A DNA stretch of 64,000 nt from a virus, in the IMG/VR virus record IMGVR_UViG_3300042475_005534, positions 24,124 to 88,123 of that record; one strand, 5' to 3'. The position numbers and the translations under genes are program-made. Positions 8,208-36,524 of this stretch are shown one piece after another (position 1 is the first letter of the stretch; each line of letters starts with the position of its first letter). The notes beneath the pieces are model-generated. The model made no database searches, was not told the DNA's origin, and saw only the letters and a program-made list of their open reading frames with translations.

Positions 8208-9893
8208 TCACACTCTTGCGAGTACAACCTTCTCCGGCTGGTGCTGATACTTGCCATCGCGGTCCTCGTAGGTGACATCACAGGGATCCCCCTCGAAAAA
8301 CAGGAGTTGACAGATCCCTTCATTGGCGTAGATGCGGCAGTCAGCCCCTGAGGAGTTGCTGAACTCCAGGGTGAGGTGGCCTTCCCAGCCGGCCTCGGCG
8401 GGAGTTGTGTTGAGAATGATACCGCAGTTCTTGACAAAGACTCCCGCAGACAGGGCAAAGTTTCCTGTCCTGGGAGCGGCGAGGCAGTAGGTTGGATGAA
8501 GACCAGGAACGCGGCGCACATTGCAAATCTTATGGTTTGCAGCCAGCGTTCCTGCCCGGAAGCCTTCGATGATGCTGTGGAACCGGCGAAAAGCGGAGCG
8601 ATCTACGCTCAGCATCCTGGCAGCTCCACGAATGGAACCCGTAGCCAGTAGTGCGTTCGTCAGACTTTCAGAAGTGACATCTTTTCGGCGGCGAAGCGCT
8701 CCCGCGCCAGCGTGTGCCACGGCCGACTGTTTGGCCCTGGCGTCTGGCTGAAGCCAGCGCTTCTTTCTTGCCTTAGCAAGGTTTTGACGGCTCTCTTCCG
8801 AGTCGAGATAAGGACGTCGTCCCTCTAGGGCCTTGCGCTTGCTCTCGTCACAGTGCAAGGCATTCAAGATTTTTTTCCGGTGTTGCGAATCCAACGCAAA
8901 CTTCTCCGCGCTTTTCCGGCCACCATGCAAATGCCTGAGATCTTCCTGGTTGTGAAGTCGCGTGTGCTGCGCTTGCGTCAACAATGCAAGGTTGTCCGGG
9001 TGATTGTTTGTCTTAATTCCGTCTCGATGATGGACGTGCAGATCTTCGCAGTCAAGGATATCCCTGGCGACCATCCGGTGAACCGATGTGCGTGCACCTC
9101 GCCTGTCACTTCCTTTGGAGGCCAGCGCCGAAGCGTGAACCGGATCGTAAACGCCGGGATAGCCGTGGTCCTCCCAGTCGTAGAAAGCGTGCAGGGAATC
9201 CCCAGGCTGGAGGTGCTGGGCCTCTTTCTCAGTACCGTCTCGAAGCAGGAATCCGTGGTCAGGCGTGCAATGAATCAATTCTCCGTTGTCCAGTTCAACT
9301 TCAAGAAGTTGGCTTTCCTCGATAAGACGCGGCGCAACCAATTCCTGAGCGATGATTCGACCGTCCAGGACTCCGAAGCCGTACAACCTTTCTCCAGCCT
9401 TTGCTTTGTCGATCAATTCCAGAAAGGTGAAATCTCCGTCAACAAGGCGAACCTTGGTGTCACCACTGAAGCAACGCGCATAAGTGCTCTTGCCCAGGCA
9501 GATGACCGTGACATTGGCTGGGACCTTGAGCTTTTCCAGGGCGACCCCGAGTCCGTAGGAGTGGGCCGGGAGAATGAAGTAGGCCCCATCACTGTCTGAG
9601 TGCAGGGCAGCAGGCTCCAGGTTGTCGGGGTTGAACCGCTTGGGGTCCATCACCGTGCCGGGTATATGGCGGAAGATCAGGAACTCCTTGGGCGAGAGAC
9701 GCAGGTCATAGCCGTAGGAGCTGCAGCCGTAGGACAGGGCCGGGACGGTGTCGATCTCCCAGACGACCTTGTCCAGTATGGGATCAAAGGAGTAGGGATG
9801 CCTCAGCTCAATGCGGCGTACCAGCTCCGGAGTGAACGGTTCGATCATCCCAGCAGAGGCCTGCTGCTTAATCCAGCGGTCGTTCTTCAGCAT
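8208..9893 (-). CDS. dcd: dCTP deaminase, intein-containing
   Basis: [20 protein letters not shown]|[35 protein letters not shown] motifs. Confidence 0.9.
8427..9473 (-). mobile_element. intein with HNH homing endonuclease (349 aa) in dcd
   Basis: Begins CFSGDTKV; block B CTPDHGF; HNH motif VHR...[15 protein letters not shown]; ends [12 protein letters not shown] followed by Cys+1. Confidence 0.9.
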
Positions 9894-9897
9894 GGGT

Positions 9898-10110
9898 TTA
9901 GGGCACGTAGCCCATGACGATGCCCAGGGGAACGACCCCGATCCCAATAGCCCGGATCACAACCACGCCGCCCAGGGGGTCGAACGACGAGCCAGCAAGC
10001 TTGATGATGTTGCTGGTCCAGCCGTAGGAGCTACCGCCCACGATGGCAGCGAAGAGTAAGCCAACACCGATGCTCTGAAGGCGAAAGACAATCGAAGGAC
10101 CGCGGGCCAT
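9898..10110 (-). CDS. small membrane protein
   Basis: Two hydrophobic segments; GWxxNIIKL...RAIGI.V.PLG. Confidence 0.55.
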
Positions 10111-24102: not shown

Positions 24103-24493
24103 CAGGGAGAGCCGCTATAGCGCGGCGGAGGATTGCTTTGTGGGCAGGTCGATAAGTTGGCACGCCGGCTTCTATGGCATCAAAGTGCGCCTCAAGCGCT
24201 TCCAAGGCCTGCTCCTTCAAGCTCGGCGGCTTGGGGCGTCGGGCGACGCGGAGATCATCGATCACGGCTTGTGGATACCACTCGGCACGTAAATGATGCA
24301 AGCATGCTTCCAGCTCAGCATCTGCAGCGGCCTGAATCTCCGGCTCGCGCTGGTCCCAGGCCCATCGGGCGGCCTGGGCAATTAAATAATCAGAGAGTTT
24401 GTCATAGTCGGGATAATCCCATGGAGCTTCTTTTCTCCATTTGACTCGCATCTCTTGAGGCGGGCTGCTGGGGTGCTGCTGTTGTTCAGTCAT
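24095..24493 (-). CDS. cyanophage-type hypothetical protein
   Basis: QAARW...ADAELEAC...LR.ARRPKPPSLKEQAL. Confidence 0.7.
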   Translation of the reverse strand: MTEQQQHPSSPPQEMRVKWRKEAPWDYPDYDKLSDYLIAQAARWAWDQREPEIQAAADAELEACLHHLRAEWYPQAVIDDLRVARRPKPPSLKEQALEALEAHFDAIEAGVPTYRPAHKAILRRAIAALPDG

Positions 24494-30580: not shown

Positions 30581-31369
30581 TCACTTGATGGACCAGGTCT
30601 TCTTGCGAACGACCTCAGCGCCAGGGACTGCGTCTGATCTCAGGACGACCGCATGCGTTGCTGGGCCGTAAGCCGCTGAGAGGGAGCGGACTTCTTCGGG
30701 GGCTGGATTTTGCTTGATGCGTTCCTTGACAAGATTCTTGATTGGATAGGAATTAAGGGTTGGCAAGAGATAATCACCTCCCGACACACCAGTGATGAGC
30801 TCAGCAATGAAATCACTGATTTCCTTGTGAAGCATGGGGCCTAAATCACCCTTGCCAGCAGGGACTTGGATGATGATTTCGTGCCGGCACAAATCCGGCG
30901 GGACCTGCTGGTCATCCAGGATCTCGGTGGAGTCACTCTGACGTGAGCAGAGGTCGTAATCCGAAAGATGGAATTCCTTCTTGCCAGGGTGGAGGGCCGC
31001 CAAGGTTCGAACCAGGTAGCGGAGCAAGCGATCGGAATCGGCCTGGTCGCGATTGCTCTTCTCCTTGTAGGTCTCGACCTGCTGCTTGAAGTAATCAGCA
31101 CGGTTCTCCAGTGACTTAACAACAAAGGCCATTTGATTGACCTTGTCCAGCAATGACTGCTGGCTGGTATTGGCGCGTTGGAGGATAGAGGAGATGAGCT
31201 CTTCTGCAGTAGCTACCTCTTCGGGGTCCTCAGAGGAGAGCTGGGCGACGGCAATCGCAAGCTCGCCGTCAATCTCCTGGGCCTCCATGGCCAGATGGAA
31301 GAGGGATCTGCCATTGGCCTGAACAATGGGCTCAAAGGTGGTGGGCTTGGGTGGTGGAGCGACGGTCAT
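30581..31369 (-). CDS. Siphovirus Gp157-like coiled-coil protein
   Basis: SLFHL...DKV....VK.LE...RL..YL...RQS....I.D...VP; terminal VPGA......W.IK. Confidence 0.6.
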   Translation of the reverse strand: MTVAPPPKPTTFEPIVQANGRSLFHLAMEAQEIDGELAIAVAQLSSEDPEEVATAEELISSILQRANTSQQSLLDKVNQMAFVVKSLENRADYFKQQVETYKEKSNRDQADSDRLLRYLVRTLAALHPGKKEFHLSDYDLCSRQSDSTEILDDQQVPPDLCRHEIIIQVPAGKGDLGPMLHKEISDFIAELITGVSGGDYLLPTLNSYPIKNLVKERIKQNPAPEEVRSLSAAYGPATHAVVLRSDAVPGAEVVRKKTWSIK

Positions 31370-31430
31370 AGGAGTGAGATGGAAGGATGGAGTGTCTGGC
31401 GGTATGCCCGACGTGGCGGTCATTGAAGCA

Positions 31431-32009: not shown

Positions 32010-32513
32010 ATGGGCATGAATCCGCTGAAATGGCTGGGTGGCATCGAGCAGAAGATGATCGATAAAGCCATTGCAGACGAGATTGCCCATAGGACGTCGG
32101 GCGTGGCAAGGCAGGCCAACCTCGTCGGGAAGCTCTACAAGGACAATCCCGACAGAATGATCCAGGAGATTGCCGATCGGGCCAGGGATGGATCTGGTAA
32201 GCAGATCGAGATGGGAGCGATTCGGAAGGACTTCAGCGAGATGGGGGAGAGCGACTTCGTGGCAAGGTATTCATCCCAGATGAAACGAGGAATGGGTGGA
32301 CATGGCTCACTGGGGCCAAGGGAGCGCCTGAGCCACCAGTTCGCGAATAGTGCGCTTGTGCGGCGTGGCGCCTACCCAGCATTGGCCGCTGGCGGTGCAG
32401 TGGCCGGCGGTGCGGCCATGACTGAAGGCGCTCAGCAACTGATGGCTCTGATGGGCTTCATGCAGCAGGGGCAGCAACAGGTCCAGCGGACTGAGGAGAG
32501 CCCACTGGCCTGA
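32010..32513 (+). CDS. hypothetical protein
   Basis: TAGACT upstream; Gly/Ala-rich C-terminus. Confidence 0.6.
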   Translation: MGMNPLKWLGGIEQKMIDKAIADEIAHRTSGVARQANLVGKLYKDNPDRMIQEIADRARDGSGKQIEMGAIRKDFSEMGESDFVARYSSQMKRGMGGHGSLGPRERLSHQFANSALVRRGAYPALAAGGAVAGGAAMTEGAQQLMALMGFMQQGQQQVQRTEESPLA

Positions 32514-32695
32514 TGCGATACGCAGGGGAGGAGACTGAGCTGGCGCAGTTGATCGAGGACGCCATGCGGCGCGATTTAGAGCTGGCCATTCTTCAGCACT
32601 CCCTGCTGGAGGGATTCCGCCGGAAGTTCGCAACTGAAGACCTGGCGGGCCTCCAGCTGCCTGGATGGGATGCACTAATGCATGACATGGGGTAA
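32513..32695 (+). CDS. hypothetical protein
   Basis: TGATG-coupled. Confidence 0.5.
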   Translation: MRYAGEETELAQLIEDAMRRDLELAILQHSLLEGFRRKFATEDLAGLQLPGWDALMHDMG

Positions 32696-32722
32696 GTTGT
32701 CGGGCATTGCGCAACACACGTC

Positions 32723-33121
32723 ATGCAGTGCGAATGCGGTGGTGAGACAAAGGTGGCTCACACCTACAAGGGGGAAGACGGGATACGAGTGAGAGCTAGG
32801 AAGTGCGACTGTTGCAGTCAAATGCTGTGGACGTCTCAACAGCCAGAGGAGGTGATCCCAGCTGAGCTGAGGCAGTGGACAGATGGGAAGCCATGCCGTG
32901 CGGCGGAGCCGAGACAGAAGGGGTCTCGCATGCCACCGACGATCGAGGAGTGGGAGGCCAATCCAGAGATGGCCTATGGCCTCAAGGCTGACGAGTTGAG
33001 GACGCTGGCAAGGCTCAAGGGTTTAACTGGAGCATGGATGTTCAACAAGACTGAGTTGCTGGAGTTCCTGATGGAAGGAGCCTGGCAGACGGGCCTAGCG
33101 AGTGAGAACCACGCGCAATAG
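32723..33121 (+). CDS. zinc-ribbon protein with C-terminal Rho-N-like helical domain
   Basis: C.CG.ETKV..T....R.RKC..C; ELR.LAR.KGL.G....K.EL. Confidence 0.6.
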   Translation: MQCECGGETKVAHTYKGEDGIRVRARKCDCCSQMLWTSQQPEEVIPAELRQWTDGKPCRAAEPRQKGSRMPPTIEEWEANPEMAYGLKADELRTLARLKGLTGAWMFNKTELLEFLMEGAWQTGLASENHAQ

Positions 33122-33272
33122 GGCCCTCCAAGGAAGAAGTCCTTGGCATCGTTAGCTGCTGCAACCCCGAGGTAGAGGAATAGGGCCGCAGAAATGGAGA
33201 GCCGGAGGCTTTTACCGAGCTTAGGTCGATGGAGAGAAGTCATGGGGTTGAGAAAGAAGTGAAGTGTGTTGG

Positions 33273-33704
33273 TCAGGAGGGCGGAAGACAGATCACACGA
33301 AAGCCGATGTAGTCGTCGGTATAGCCGGGCAGGTCAATGCCGCGGTGAGCCAAGCGGCGGTCTGAGGGGAGACTGTCCCAGCCGCCGCCGCGCAATACCG
33401 CCCGGCATGGTGCTTCTTCCTGGGGGAGGCACACCACGCGAAACCCGATGACGTCGTTGGCATAGCCGGGCTGGTCGCGGTAGCGGTAGACCGAGCGGCA
33501 GTTCCTGGGGAAGTTGAACCAGGAGCCACCGCGCATTGACAAGTCGCAGCGTGCGGTGGAGGCCCCTGGAGGGACGCACACCACGCGGAAACCGATGTTG
33601 TCGATTGGCTCGCCGGGTTCTCCGGGAAAGCGATGGGCAGAGCGGCAATGCCTAAGGAAGAAGTCCCAGGGACCGCCGCGTAACGCCCGATTGGGGATCG
33701 TCAT
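33273..33704 (-). CDS. protein made of 3 tandem DGR-VR-like units (RGG.W...CRS..R...GFRV)
   Basis: Starts MTIPNRAL, ATGA-coupled; three units of the FGE/CLec C-terminal motif. Confidence 0.7.
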   Translation of the reverse strand: MTIPNRALRGGPWDFFLRHCRSAHRFPGEPGEPIDNIGFRVVCVPPGASTARCDLSMRGGSWFNFPRNCRSVYRYRDQPGYANDVIGFRVVCLPQEEAPCRAVLRGGGWDSLPSDRRLAHRGIDLPGYTDDYIGFRVICLPPS

Positions 33705-34153
33705 GGTGTCATCCCCCGCGGAAGACAGATCACACGAAAGCCGAGGTCGTAGTCGGCATAGTCGGGCGAATGGGAAATGCCGCGACAGGTCGAGCGGCAC
33801 CAGGGGTAGCTGAGCTGGGCGTGGGAGCCGCCGCGCATGGTTACCTGCGTGGGCTTGACCCCCAGAGGGAGGCACACCACGCGGAAGCCCAAGCCGCTGC
33901 TGGCATAGCCGGGCTGGAAGCGTCCGAAGCCGCGGCAGGCCGAGCGGCAGAACCCGGGGTTGTTGCCCCAGGAGCCACCGCGCAGTGGCGGTAGCATCCG
34001 AGGTGGTGCCACCTCCCGAGGGAGGCACACCACGCGGAAACCGACGAGATCGTCTTGGTAGTGCGGAGCGGCGCGTCGGTAGGACAAGCGTAAATACGCC
34101 TGTTGTTCCGTCCTGAAAAACCAAGTACCGCCGCGTTGCACTTGATACGTCAT
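33701..34153 (-). CDS. protein made of 3 tandem DGR-VR-like units
   Basis: RGGTW/RGGSW/RGGSH ... GFRVVC x3; ATGA-coupled at both ends. Confidence 0.7.
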   Translation of the reverse strand: MTYQVQRGGTWFFRTEQQAYLRLSYRRAAPHYQDDLVGFRVVCLPREVAPPRMLPPLRGGSWGNNPGFCRSACRGFGRFQPGYASSGLGFRVVCLPLGVKPTQVTMRGGSHAQLSYPWCRSTCRGISHSPDYADYDLGFRVICLPRGMTP

Positions 34154-34554
34154 GACCTGCTCAGCAGGAGGAGCAGGTCAGAGCGGCGAGCTCGGGAGAC
34201 CTTGTTGCCGCGGTGCCCCCGCTCGCGAGCCAGGGCACGCAGCTGGGACACATTGAGGCTGAGGTCGATTCCATTGAGAGCGCAGCGGAAGGCTGTTAGC
34301 TCCGGGTCTTCTGTAATGGGCACAGAGAGAGTCATAGGAGGGATGGATTGGGGTTCAGGGGGAGTGAGGCCGAGGAGGTGGAGATGGAGGGCTGCTAGCT
34401 GCTGGCTGCGCTCTTCCAGGGCAAGACGCAGCTGGCCGCCGGCGGCGTAGGAGGCGTCGGCAAGATGCCAGAGCAGGGCAATAGCAATGCAGAAAAAAGG
34501 GGCGGCTTGATGCATGAAATGTCGAAGCCGGCCCCCAATCAGATCGGAATGCAT
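34150..34554 (-). CDS. hypothetical protein with hydrophobic segment and C-terminal Rho-N-like motif
   Basis: LNVSQLRALARERG...RARRSDLL. Confidence 0.55.
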   Translation of the reverse strand: MHSDLIGGRLRHFMHQAAPFFCIAIALLWHLADASYAAGGQLRLALEERSQQLAALHLHLLGLTPPEPQSIPPMTLSVPITEDPELTAFRCALNGIDLSLNVSQLRALARERGHRGNKVSRARRSDLLLLLSRS

Positions 34555-34564
34555 GGGCAGGGAA

Positions 34565-35284
34565 TCAATAGGGCCTGTATTCGTTGCGGCACCACTCGAA
34601 GACCTGGCCGTGCATGTCGTAGAGGCCCCAGGCATTGGGTTGGTACTGCTTGACATCGCAGGTGGAATCTGCGTTGAAGCGTGCCTGGGACTCATCGAGG
34701 GTGTCACCGAAAGCGAATTCAGTGGTGGTGCCTGCGCGGCAGGCGTATTCCCACTGTTCTTCTGTGGGGAGGGTGTAGGTCTTACCTGTAGCCCGGCTGA
34801 GGCGGGCACAGAATTCCATGGCGTCATACCAGGAGACGCATTCGACGGGGCGGTCATCGCCCTTGAAGCGTGAGGGATCGGGATTGAGATCGCGCTCGAC
34901 CTTGGGCAGGTTCTCGGCGACCCATCGCCACTGGGCTTGAGTGGTCGGAGTTTCCGCCATCTCAAAGCCCTCGTCGATGATCACCTCATGGACCGGCTTC
35001 TCATCAGAGAAAGCGGACGGTGAATCAGATCCCATCATGAAGCGCCCTGGAGCGATGGAAACCATCGGCAGGTTGAGGGCGGAAGCGGAGATGCTGTGAT
35101 TGGAGGTAGTCATGGTTCCTGAAGAAATGGAAGATGGATGGAGGAGGCGGCAGGGGCGAATCCCGATGATGGGGAGGGCGCAGGCCTTGTTGACGCTGCC
35201 CCGGAGGGTGGCACGGCAGTTGCGTGGTTCGTCACTGATCCAGGAGCCACCGCGCAGCTGCCGATGGGCGTCAAGGGCTGTCAT
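34565..35284 (-). CDS. FGE-sulfatase / C-type-lectin-fold protein, C-terminally truncated or circularly permuted
   Basis: MV.I.PG.F.MGS, E.PVHEV, TQAQW, PVE.VSW.DA.EFC, LPTE.QWEYACRAG, PNAWGLYDMHG..FEWC then stop; RGGSW unit at the N-terminus. Confidence 0.85.
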   Translation of the reverse strand: MTALDAHRQLRGGSWISDEPRNCRATLRGSVNKACALPIIGIRPCRLLHPSSISSGTMTTSNHSISASALNLPMVSIAPGRFMMGSDSPSAFSDEKPVHEVIIDEGFEMAETPTTQAQWRWVAENLPKVERDLNPDPSRFKGDDRPVECVSWYDAMEFCARLSRATGKTYTLPTEEQWEYACRAGTTTEFAFGDTLDESQARFNADSTCDVKQYQPNAWGLYDMHGQVFEWCRNEYRPY

Positions 35285-35643
35285 GGCGCCACCTCCCGAG
35301 AGAGGCGGACCACACGAAAGCCGAGGCCGTAGCCGCGGTAGCTACCGACGGGCGGGTCGTCTTCGCGGAAGGCCGAGCGGCAATAGCTGGGAGCTTCGTC
35401 CCAGCCGCCGCCGCGCAGCACCGCCCGGCATGGTGCCACTTCCCGAGGGAGGCGCACCACGCGAAACCCGACGTCGGTAAGGTTTCCCTCTTCGCCTAAG
35501 ACGGCCTCACTTAGCTCTGCCTCGTGGCGGCCAGCCGAACGGCAGGTATAGGAGGCTTCGCCATAGGAACCACCGCGAATGGAGTTTCCCAGGGAAAGCG
35601 GTAAATCAAGAGACAGTAGAAAAGGGGACAAGCGATAACCCAT
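35281..35643 (-). CDS. protein made of 2 tandem DGR-VR-like units
   Basis: RGGSY...CRSA...GFRVV and RGGGW...CRSA...GFRVV. Confidence 0.7.
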   Translation of the reverse strand: MGYRLSPFLLSLDLPLSLGNSIRGGSYGEASYTCRSAGRHEAELSEAVLGEEGNLTDVGFRVVRLPREVAPCRAVLRGGGWDEAPSYCRSAFREDDPPVGSYRGYGLGFRVVRLSREVAP

Positions 35644-35675
35644 GAGACATCAGAGAGGGGTGCATGCCATGGTGA

Positions 35676-36335
35676 TCAGGAAGGGGTCACAACAGGCGCC
35701 TCTCGGATGAGCCGCAACAGGGATTCCCGCTGCCGGCGAGTTTCGGCGGCCCTGGCGGCGGCCCCGGCGGCGTCCCTGGCGGCGTCCCAGGCGGCCCAGG
35801 CGGCCCCGGCGGCGTCCCTGGCGGCGTCCCAGGCGGCCCAGGCGGCCCTGGCGGCGTCCCTGGCGGCGTCCCAGGCGGCCCAGGCGGCCCTGGCGGCGGC
35901 CCCGGCGGCGGCCCAGGCGTTTTTCTCCCAGACGTTGCCAGAAGCCAGTAAATCCATGCCATCAATAACTGGGTCAATAACGGCCTGGATTTCGAGCCGC
36001 TGAGGAGGGAGATTCCTTAGGGTTTCACCGAGGAAGGCCCAATGGATCAAGGAGAGGTCTTTACCGTCCGTAGCCACAGCGTCGGGGAAGTCGTAGAAGA
36101 ATTGCTTAGCTTCCTCGAGCGGAAGAGATTCAAAGATGTGTTCCGCGATGCGAAGAATGGACTCAGTGAGCCCAAATCGCTCCACAGCAGGAGTGGAGTC
36201 GTTTGAATGGGTCAGGCACCCGATGAAGCAGCCTTTGCCGTCTGACCAGTAATTACCCTGGACGACGGAATCCGCCGTGATGTGTTCGTGGACCTCCTGT
36301 TTGAGGAGGTCGGTGTTCTTGGTGAGGGTGGTCAT
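35676..36335 (-). CDS. hypothetical protein with AAWAAWDAARDAA repeats
   Basis: YW..GKGC.IGC..H N-terminus; Ala-rich tandem repeats at 35745-35920. Confidence 0.75.
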   Translation of the reverse strand: MTTLTKNTDLLKQEVHEHITADSVVQGNYWSDGKGCFIGCLTHSNDSTPAVERFGLTESILRIAEHIFESLPLEEAKQFFYDFPDAVATDGKDLSLIHWAFLGETLRNLPPQRLEIQAVIDPVIDGMDLLASGNVWEKNAWAAAGAAARAAWAAWDAARDAARAAWAAWDAARDAAGAAWAAWDAARDAAGAAARAAETRRQRESLLRLIREAPVVTPS

Positions 36336-36524
36336 AAGAAAAGAATTGAGAGGAGGTTAGCCCGCATGCCATGGCTAACAAGTCGCCCGGCACGGCTCTG
36401 TAAGAGCGCTAGGACACGCAATTGCTTAATGGCCATGGACTCCAGGAGAGGCCGAGCGACGGCCATGGAAGGGGCCACTGGATGGATTAGGGCCCCGCCC
36501 GGGTGGATGGGGCCTGGATGTACC

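Follow-up and report, generated by a model that had tools for sequence, protein, structure and literature searches.

A probable circular permutant of the FGE-type C-type-lectin fold, with its variable segment first, in the genome of a lake phage

We describe a phage gene that is probably a real and conserved circular permutant of the FGE-type C-type-lectin domain, probably functional and with a predicted structure. On balance, we read it as a conserved and functional form of this lectin-fold binding domain in which the variable segment comes first. The product would be a small binding protein of the FGE-type C-type-lectin fold, stand-alone, non-enzymatic and circularly permuted, whose chain would run from a variable segment of about 35 residues (RGGSW...G-x-R) through a linker of about 25 residues to a core ending just past the EWC strand. 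The phage is of lake origin and its genome is complete (88,123 bp, with direct terminal repeats). The window referred to below is the whole stretch that was analysed, i.e. 64,000 nucleotides covering positions 24,124 to 88,123 of IMG/VR record IMGVR_UViG_3300042475_005534.

The gene is the second of five ORFs that occupy positions 35643-33273 of the minus strand. Three of their four junctions are ATGA stop/start overlaps and the fourth is a 10-nt gap. The features of the locus are as follows.

35281..35643, minus strand: ORF of two units (U1, U2), whose TGA overlaps the ATG of the permuted gene as ATGA
35292..35296, minus strand: GGAGG, Shine-Dalgarno-like motif 7 nt before the ATG of the permuted gene; similar in L005, L006 and L086
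34565..35284, minus strand: permuted gene (239 aa), composed of unit U3, a linker and a C-terminally short FGE core
35153..35254, minus strand: N-terminal unit, residues 11-44, RGGSW...IGIRP; profile positions 213-252, scaffold residues kept
35114..35152, minus strand: low-complexity linker, residues 45-57, from the last strand of the unit to the core; pLDDT 92 (residues 41-50) and 55 (residues 51-60)
35111..35113, minus strand: internal Met58 (MTTSN), conserved, a possible alternative start from which only the core would be made
34574..35065, minus strand: FGE-sulfatase core, residues 74-237, Pfam profile positions 5-194 of 255
34150..34554, minus strand: ORF of 134 aa starting MHSDLIGG, which begins 10 nt past the core stop and holds no unit
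33701..34153, minus strand: ORF of three units (U4-U6), whose ATG overlaps the preceding stop
33273..33704, minus strand: ORF of three units (U7-U9), whose ATG overlaps the preceding stop
30581-31423, in the leftward block of the permuted gene: Mu Gam-like gene

Comparison with Pfam revealed that the greater part of the protein (residues 74-237) corresponds to positions 5-194 of the 255-position FGE-sulfatase profile (PF03781), with a score of 142.5 bits against a cut-off of 23.3. When residues 1-57 were scanned alone, residues 6-43 matched positions 213-252 of the same profile (E 0.005; 17 bits, below the 23.3-bit cut-off). The two parts of the domain therefore lie in rotated order: at the level of sequence the protein reads as positions 213-252, linker and positions 5-194, and about 18 profile positions that join the two parts in canonical proteins are missing. 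Both segments of the FGE domain are thus found in one chain (the match of the unit being below the Pfam cut-off), and 34565-35284 does not encode a domain of canonical order, in which profile positions ~195-255 come after the core. The weak match of the unit is raised above chance by the recurrence of the unit-then-core order in homologues down to about 50% identity; in the equivalent position, the units reach 40.9 bits (L086) and 42.2 bits (L008) against PF03781.

The core ends with EWC, RNEYRPY and the stop codon; within the ORF no unit comes after it, nor do the last ~60 profile positions. The original prediction had correctly noted that the usual terminal RGGSW...GFR segment is lacking, since the Pfam match ends at position 194 of 255, and it placed the end of the core six residues past MHGQVFEWC, where there are in fact seven (RNEYRPY). 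It was likewise right that an in-frame unit precedes the core and that its ATG overlaps the upstream stop (ATGA at 35281-35284). No further domains were found in the 239-aa protein. Pipelines based on Pfam see only a truncated FGE domain in such a gene, and would therefore call it broken.

The same arrangement was found in other proteins. In 12 of the best 120 database homologues the core is preceded by one to four units and has none behind it; about nine more have units on both sides, and the rest are canonical, with the core followed by one unit. The contig of one of the 12, P0010, is 904 nt long and perhaps cut. The original prediction had proposed a search for further permuted FGE proteins in viral data, and this was productive: seven of the best 78 viral loci have N-terminal units and no in-frame C-terminal unit. 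In four of these loci, carrying two units (L008, L009), three (L029) or four (L025), the 700 nt downstream hold no unit in any frame. The GFRV of the last unit in L008 and L025 is about 10 residues from the first strand of the core, a spacing expected of a hairpin that joins the old C- and N-termini. A member of the window's own clade, the metagenome contig L086 (78% identical), carries two in-frame N-terminal units; its core ends with EWCLNRYQSY and a stop, cut at the same position as in the window, and its downstream genes are unrelated and lie in a lower-GC context.

Among bacterial loci (the best 80 of at least 596), 57 were canonical, with the core followed by the unit, and none of these 80 had a unit directly before the core without a C-terminal unit. 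These architectures were counted by regular expressions, which left 11 of the 80 bacterial and 4 of the 78 viral loci unclassified, together with the viral loci L053 and L063. Residues 1-110 were also compared with 1.84 billion representatives; most of the matches were proteins in which canonical domains lie in tandem, and the permuted family was enlarged little. The 148 representatives that were classified added, as new unit-first matches, two fragments (P0121, P0193) and two unit-only ORFs (P0180, P0248). In P0224 the unit comes first and the core last, while P0002 (the cluster of the gene itself) and P0089 were already among the best 120. The frequency of unit-to-core junctions in tandem canonical proteins suggests an origin via duplication and truncation.

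The core is under purifying selection. Over the 182 codons from Met58 to the stop, dN/dS was 0.08 at a dS of 0.38 in comparison with the L006 orthologue, and 0.20 at a dS of 0.07 in comparison with L005. The end of the core falls at an identical position in the window, L005, L006, L086 and the proteins P0002-P0005. The unit presents a different picture, in that a few scaffold residues are fixed (R11, G12 and R43 invariant; G13, R24 and G41 at least 90% conserved among 28 aligned sequences, down to about 40-50% identity) and almost all of the residues between them differ among orthologues that are 80-90% identical overall. The N-terminal unit is therefore hypervariable between close relatives. 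Non-conservation of the unit in homologues, which the original prediction had named, together with predicted disorder, as grounds for abandoning the permutation, was not found; the unit is conserved.

Codon usage within the unit resembles that of the variable regions of diversity-generating retroelements (DGRs), with adenine-poor NNC-type codons between fixed scaffold codons. In L006, C is the third base of 26 of the 33 unit codons and A of none, whereas 89 of the 182 core codons end in C (p 0.002). The footprint is weaker in the window, where 24 of the 34 unit codons end in C, against 90 of 182 in the core (p 0.03), the exceptions including AGT, GAA, AAG and ATT. Other features of a DGR were not found: the genome holds no reverse transcriptase accompanied by a template repeat, and the variable region is not C-terminal. 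Contigs of four other lake metagenome runs match the window from position 33200 and stop inside the unit, at 35160; those that span 33200-35160 as a whole (runs X8 and X19) show 26-27 differences from the window.

It is conceivable that the locus is a decaying remnant, i.e. that a wrecked array of units surrounds a broken gene, that the frames are open by chance, and that no product matters. Such a reading would account for units lying in three different frames, for the lack of a reverse transcriptase in a complete 88-kb genome, and for the degenerate state of the window unit, which scores 17 against 23.3 bits, has IGIRP in place of GFRV and a T where at least 90% of the homologues have A, and is two codons shorter than its L006 orthologue. 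It is, however, disfavoured and in our view highly improbable, since it fits poorly with the purifying selection measured on the core (0.08 at a dS of 0.38), with the identical end of the core in the window, three relatives and P0002-P0005, and with the presence of the same architecture in differing genomic contexts.

If the gene is expressed, the question arises of which start codon is used. The upstream ATG lies at 35282-35284 and overlaps the TGA of ORF 35281-35643. A Shine-Dalgarno-like motif precedes it in all four clade members, and we infer that translation starts there. Before the internal ATG such a motif is absent in three of four relatives; the window has AGGA at a distance of 3 nt. 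The original prediction had raised the alternative start MTTSN, which would yield a core with no variable segment, the upstream unit being either untranslated or an irrelevant leftover of the array. One part of this proposal stands, because Met58 and the motif MTT(T)SNH are conserved and two proteins, P0006 (193 aa) and P0007 (187 aa), have been called from this codon, although both sit on short contigs (1544 and 941 nt). The appearance of units and core as former separate cistrons joined in frame also accords with it. The position of the Shine-Dalgarno-like motif before the upstream, not the internal, ATG in three of four relatives nevertheless speaks against a core-only product, as does the retention of the frame and scaffold residues of the unit over about 50% sequence divergence. 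Moreover, a core missing about 60 profile positions would be unlikely to fold alone. We thus regard a start at Met58 as the source of the relevant product as distinctly unlikely, and continue with the full-length, permuted protein.

The structure of this protein was predicted in two ways. AlphaFold2, applied to the whole ORF with 116 aligned sequences, gave a mean pLDDT of 82.6, with values above 85 for the core. Within the unit, the pLDDT was 81 for residues 31-40 and 92 for residues 41-50 (with a strand at 45-47), and below 50 for residues 1-26, which comprise the RGGSW half. The two-unit homologue L008 behaved similarly, its distal unit remaining below 50 and its proximal unit reaching 32-55 in the RGGSW half and 85-86 in the GFRV part. 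The predicted core resembles known structures of the family (Z 13-16 for PvdO, TvpA and FGEs in VIA-align). The top structural match was PvdO (5hha; Z 16.2, rmsd 2.1 over 169 residues), and the superposition of model residues 66-239 on TvpA (2y3c) gave Z 15.9 and an rmsd of 1.6 A over 159 residues, with 33% identity.

In the second approach, the core (residues 58-239) and the unit (residues 1-57) were folded by ESMFold2 as two separate chains, the input being a 28-row alignment of permuted homologues. The pair scored 0.94 as opposed to 0.06 for the best of three controls; in calibration, 58 of 80 solved complexes attained the mark, as did 2 of 110 mismatched pairs. At least 96% of the contacts agreed between runs, and the pLDDT of the partner was at least 82. 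The interface of the two-chain fold involves unit residues 4-5, 7-30 and 33-49, with L10 and R11 placed against F229-C232, I39-G41 against residues 148-151 and 228-231, and R43 and P44 against residues 109-114. The model fits a unit that fills the slot of the missing C-terminal segment, but a pass in this assay may stem from the model's memory of solved FGE structures.

According to these predictions, the unit would occupy the site of the canonical C-terminal segment, with L10 and R11 lying against the last strand of the core (F229-C232) and its own last strand (I39-P44) against core residues 109-114 and 148-151. The outcome would be one complete binding domain in which the variable loop comes early in the chain, ahead of the core. 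Structure prediction had been suggested as a check on the permutation, and it gave a divided answer: the whole unit docks in the two-chain fold and residues 31-50 are placed with confidence, while AlphaFold2 leaves residues 1-26 below a pLDDT of 50. The proposal that the variable strand has moved to the N-terminus is accordingly well founded as regards the rotated order in a single frame and its conservation in relatives; as regards folding, AlphaFold2 is confident only for residues 31-50.

The two-chain fold is compatible with completion of the core in cis as well as in trans. Unit-coding sequences are also found after the core. In the window, L005 and L006 a separate ORF starts 10-12 nt past the core stop. 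In L002 and L006 this ORF begins 12 nt past the stop, in the +1 frame, with MHSDLRGGSW, and the window and L001 keep the MHSDL start (as MHSDLIGG), which is followed by an insert of ~400 nt. ORF 34150-34554 of the window thus consists of a leftover unit-ORF start, recognizable from L002, and this insert, which is absent from L002. In L003 and L017, an ORF starting MALQAKLLRGGSW begins 2 nt past the core stop in the other frame, and the core has no N-terminal unit. L017 and L065 have truncated cores that no N-terminal unit precedes, and unit-coding sequence comes after these cores in another frame; the downstream sequence has its own ATG in L017, and none was seen in L065. Together with the unit ORFs that come after the core in the clade, L017 and L065 indicate that the fold can apparently also be encoded in two pieces.

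These arrangements raise the possibility of a split domain, in which the core would be completed in trans by a separate unit polypeptide (from U4-U6, U7-U9 or U1-U2) and the fused unit would be a member of the pool or a spare. Several observations are consistent with this: the unit ORFs just past the core stop in L002/L006 and L003/L017, the MHSDL start kept in the window and L001, the absence of any N-terminal unit from L017 and L065, the existence elsewhere of unit-only ORFs as protein clusters (P0180, P0248), and the predicted docking of a free unit. The ATGA overlaps at three of the four junctions suggest coupled translation, which points in the same direction. On the other hand, L086, L008, L009, L025 and L029 carry fused N-terminal units only and have no separate unit ORF nearby, so that in these loci the cis unit alone is on hand, and in the window and L001 the ORF after the core carries the ~400-nt insert in place of a unit. 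We consider completion in trans to be unlikely for this gene, and retain the fused unit of the permutant as the segment that would complete its core.

A programmed frameshift leading from the core into the downstream units was also considered. As a general mechanism it was rejected, because the frame of the unit ORF differs between relatives (+1 in L002, the other in L003) and both ORFs have an ATG of their own. No intron or RNA element was indicated in the 411-nt in-frame gap that separates U4 from the core, as its four Rfam matches (E up to 10) were all far below the gathering scores and the fold z-score was -0.93. The only Pfam match of the gap ORF 34150-34554 was DUF7368, at E 0.15.

The original prediction further held that the N-terminal position could receive upstream units by exchange. 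We compared all units of the window, L001, L002, L003 and L086, and found the N-terminal unit of the window in one of the 25 best pairs, where its partner was its own orthologue. This orthologue, in L001 (99%), is its only close relative, and no array unit resembles it; cassette exchange is thus not supported. Orthologous N-terminal units share CRA(A/T), and five of six end in RP(C); the array units (CRSA...GFRVVC) have neither feature. Array units on opposite sides of the core are alike across phages, as exemplified by U8 of the window, which is 81% identical to the first upstream unit of L001. The best direct repeat involving units in the region 32500-36500 (89% over 79 nt) lies between two unit junctions.

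A broader proposal is that of a modular scaffold, i.e. a conserved core completed by interchangeable mini-modules of ~45 residues, either N-terminal and in cis or supplied in trans from coupled cistrons, with the modules written, now or formerly, by a retroelement of the host. We judge this to be unlikely as a whole.

Among characterized proteins, TvpA (Treponema denticola variable protein 1, PDB 2Y3C), a DGR target, is the closest solved relative. Both proteins have the same core fold, both are non-enzymatic, and both have a variable segment with a scaffold of the RGGSW...G-F-R type, the unit matching the same Pfam positions, 213-252. In TvpA the variable segment is C-terminal, after the core, in agreement with the order of the Pfam profile. 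The phage gene differs in that its variable segment is N-terminal, its core stops at profile position 194, and the phage has no reverse transcriptase.

PvdO (5HHA) and the formylglycine-generating enzymes (1Y1E, 2Q17) have the same fold as the gene product, but their order, unlike that of the gene, is canonical. In the enzymes, a pair of catalytic cysteines lies after GGS(Y/W) (Cys336 and Cys341 of human FGE), within the segment equivalent to the unit. The unit, which reads RGGSWISDEPRNCRATLRG, has a single cysteine in the equivalent stretch and thus lacks the catalytic pair, and for this reason the protein is read as a non-enzymatic binding domain.

The closest relatives in sequence (45-66% identity to the core) are the canonical-order FGE-type DGR-target domains of cyanobacteria and phages (Fischerella, Hapalosiphon, Nostoc and Cyanobium MAGs). 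The cyanobacterial and phage domains share with the gene the unit consensus LRGGSW..P..CRSA.R....P.......GFRV, but in the cyanobacterial ones, unlike in the gene, the core precedes the unit and the domain is often fused to others. Tandem canonical FGE proteins (P0122-P0268) contain local junctions, from a unit to the next core, like that of the gene. Unlike the gene, these proteins begin with a core and end with a unit, the core-unit pair being repeated. Duplication and truncation of such proteins could plausibly have given rise to the gene, and a likely origin would be a tandem array of canonical domains or variable units from which the piece after the last core was lost.

In this stand-alone form the break falls exactly at the junction of core and variable segment, and spare units and split cistrons surround it. 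Roux et al. 2021 (PMC8144416) describe the variable regions of DGR targets as near-universally C-terminal; one reason given is that such a position allows the retrohoming signals in the DNA to fall outside the coding sequence. Among the papers listed by a full-text literature search, none described circular permutation combined with the FGE-sulfatase/C-type-lectin fold, and the two that mention both circular permutation and formylglycine are unrelated engineering studies.

The permuted gene sits among leftward early and DNA-metabolism genes, outside the virion module. Besides the Mu Gam-like gene, the leftward block holds a DUF932 protein, a VapE-like primase/helicase and an intein-bearing dCTP-deaminase-like gene, and the terminase and virion genes lie on the opposite strand from about 40 kb. 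In PHROGs, 35676-36335 had no family and other neighbours gave little. The FGE core of 34565-35284 is the only one in the whole genome, and no match to the reverse transcriptase profile PF00078 was found across the complete 88,123 bp. The permuted protein presumably binds a ligand, and it might act inside the infected cell or at its surface, for example as a mimic or decoy of host hypervariable lectin-domain proteins.

To conclude, the existence of a conserved family in which the variable segment comes first shows that this fold tolerates rewiring at the junction of core and variable segment. It further invites the question of how diversification acts, or once acted, on variable regions at internal or N-terminal positions. 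If the modular reading were true, a single phage lacking a reverse transcriptase of its own would present a small repertoire of binding sites generated by combination. For protein engineers, the family is a precedent from nature for a C-type-lectin display scaffold that is permuted and might also be splittable.

Within one lake metagenome run, two variants of the N-terminal unit of the permuted FGE gene (34565-35284, minus strand) and of the array upstream of it coexist. Contigs of 10.8 kb and 11.3 kb, assembled from two lake runs other than that of the window (X8 and X19, respectively), match the window over positions 33200-35160, as do shorter contigs from runs X7 and X24; the contigs of all four runs diverge from the window at 35160, that is, inside the N-terminal unit. 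The coexistence in X8 follows from the presence of a second contig of lower depth, which matches positions 35131-35670 of the window exactly, while the long contig of the same run diverges.

The units which flank the core on opposite sides are related across phages, since unit U8 of the downstream array (33424-33535) is 81% identical at the DNA level to the first unit of the upstream array at locus L001 (4031-4130), and both contain the motif RGGSWFNFPR(N/D)C. The phage carrying L001 is 97% related to that of the window. The unit and core cistrons are connected by three ATGA stop/start overlaps (35281-35284, 34150-34153 and 33701-33704), and the linker that follows most units (LPREVAP and similar) includes a stretch resembling GGAGG or GGAAG, together with an ATG whose frame varies. 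Three other genes of the window are listed below.

Other genes in the window
34150-34554, minus strand: ORF of 134 aa that contains the motif LNVSQLRALARERG as well as a hydrophobic segment, AAPFFCIAIALLW
35676-36335, minus strand: 219-aa ORF neighbouring the unit and core cistrons, with a GC-rich 42-nt tandem repeat at 35715-35931
8208-9947, minus strand: dCTP-deaminase-like gene split by an intein that carries an HNH endonuclease domain

The first of these, in which LNVSQLRALARERG is a helix-extension-helix-like motif, had no significant match in Pfam. It lies within an insert of approximately 400 nt, placed directly after the MHSDL start of a former unit ORF, which is present in the window and L001 and absent from the related phage locus L002. 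The tandem repeat of the 219-aa ORF encodes AAWAAWDAARDAA-type repeats, and no family of Pfam or PHROG was matched by this ORF.

In the 78%-identical clade member L086, the GC content of the permuted FGE gene (0.51-0.58; positions 1201-2200) is higher than that of the preceding 1.2 kb (0.34-0.39; 1-1200) and of the region just 3' of the gene (0.45-0.47; 2101-2700), which hints at its recent acquisition by this phage.

In many homologues, the interval between the core and an in-frame C-terminal unit contains one to five unit-like copies in the +1 frame.

Homologues with unit-like copies in the +1 frame
Proteins P0008, P0014, P0022, P0030, P0032, P0038, P0044, P0047, P0070 and P0115
Related locus L007, 2911-4584: five consecutive copies

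These copies read SLGK.SGA..CAAAPG...AARP..TTRP...LGSASA, in which CAAAPG is LRGGSW after a one-base shift. Because their threonine runs would correspond to AAC runs in the unit frame, the translated "linkers" of these homologues look like template-repeat-like copies embedded inside the gene.
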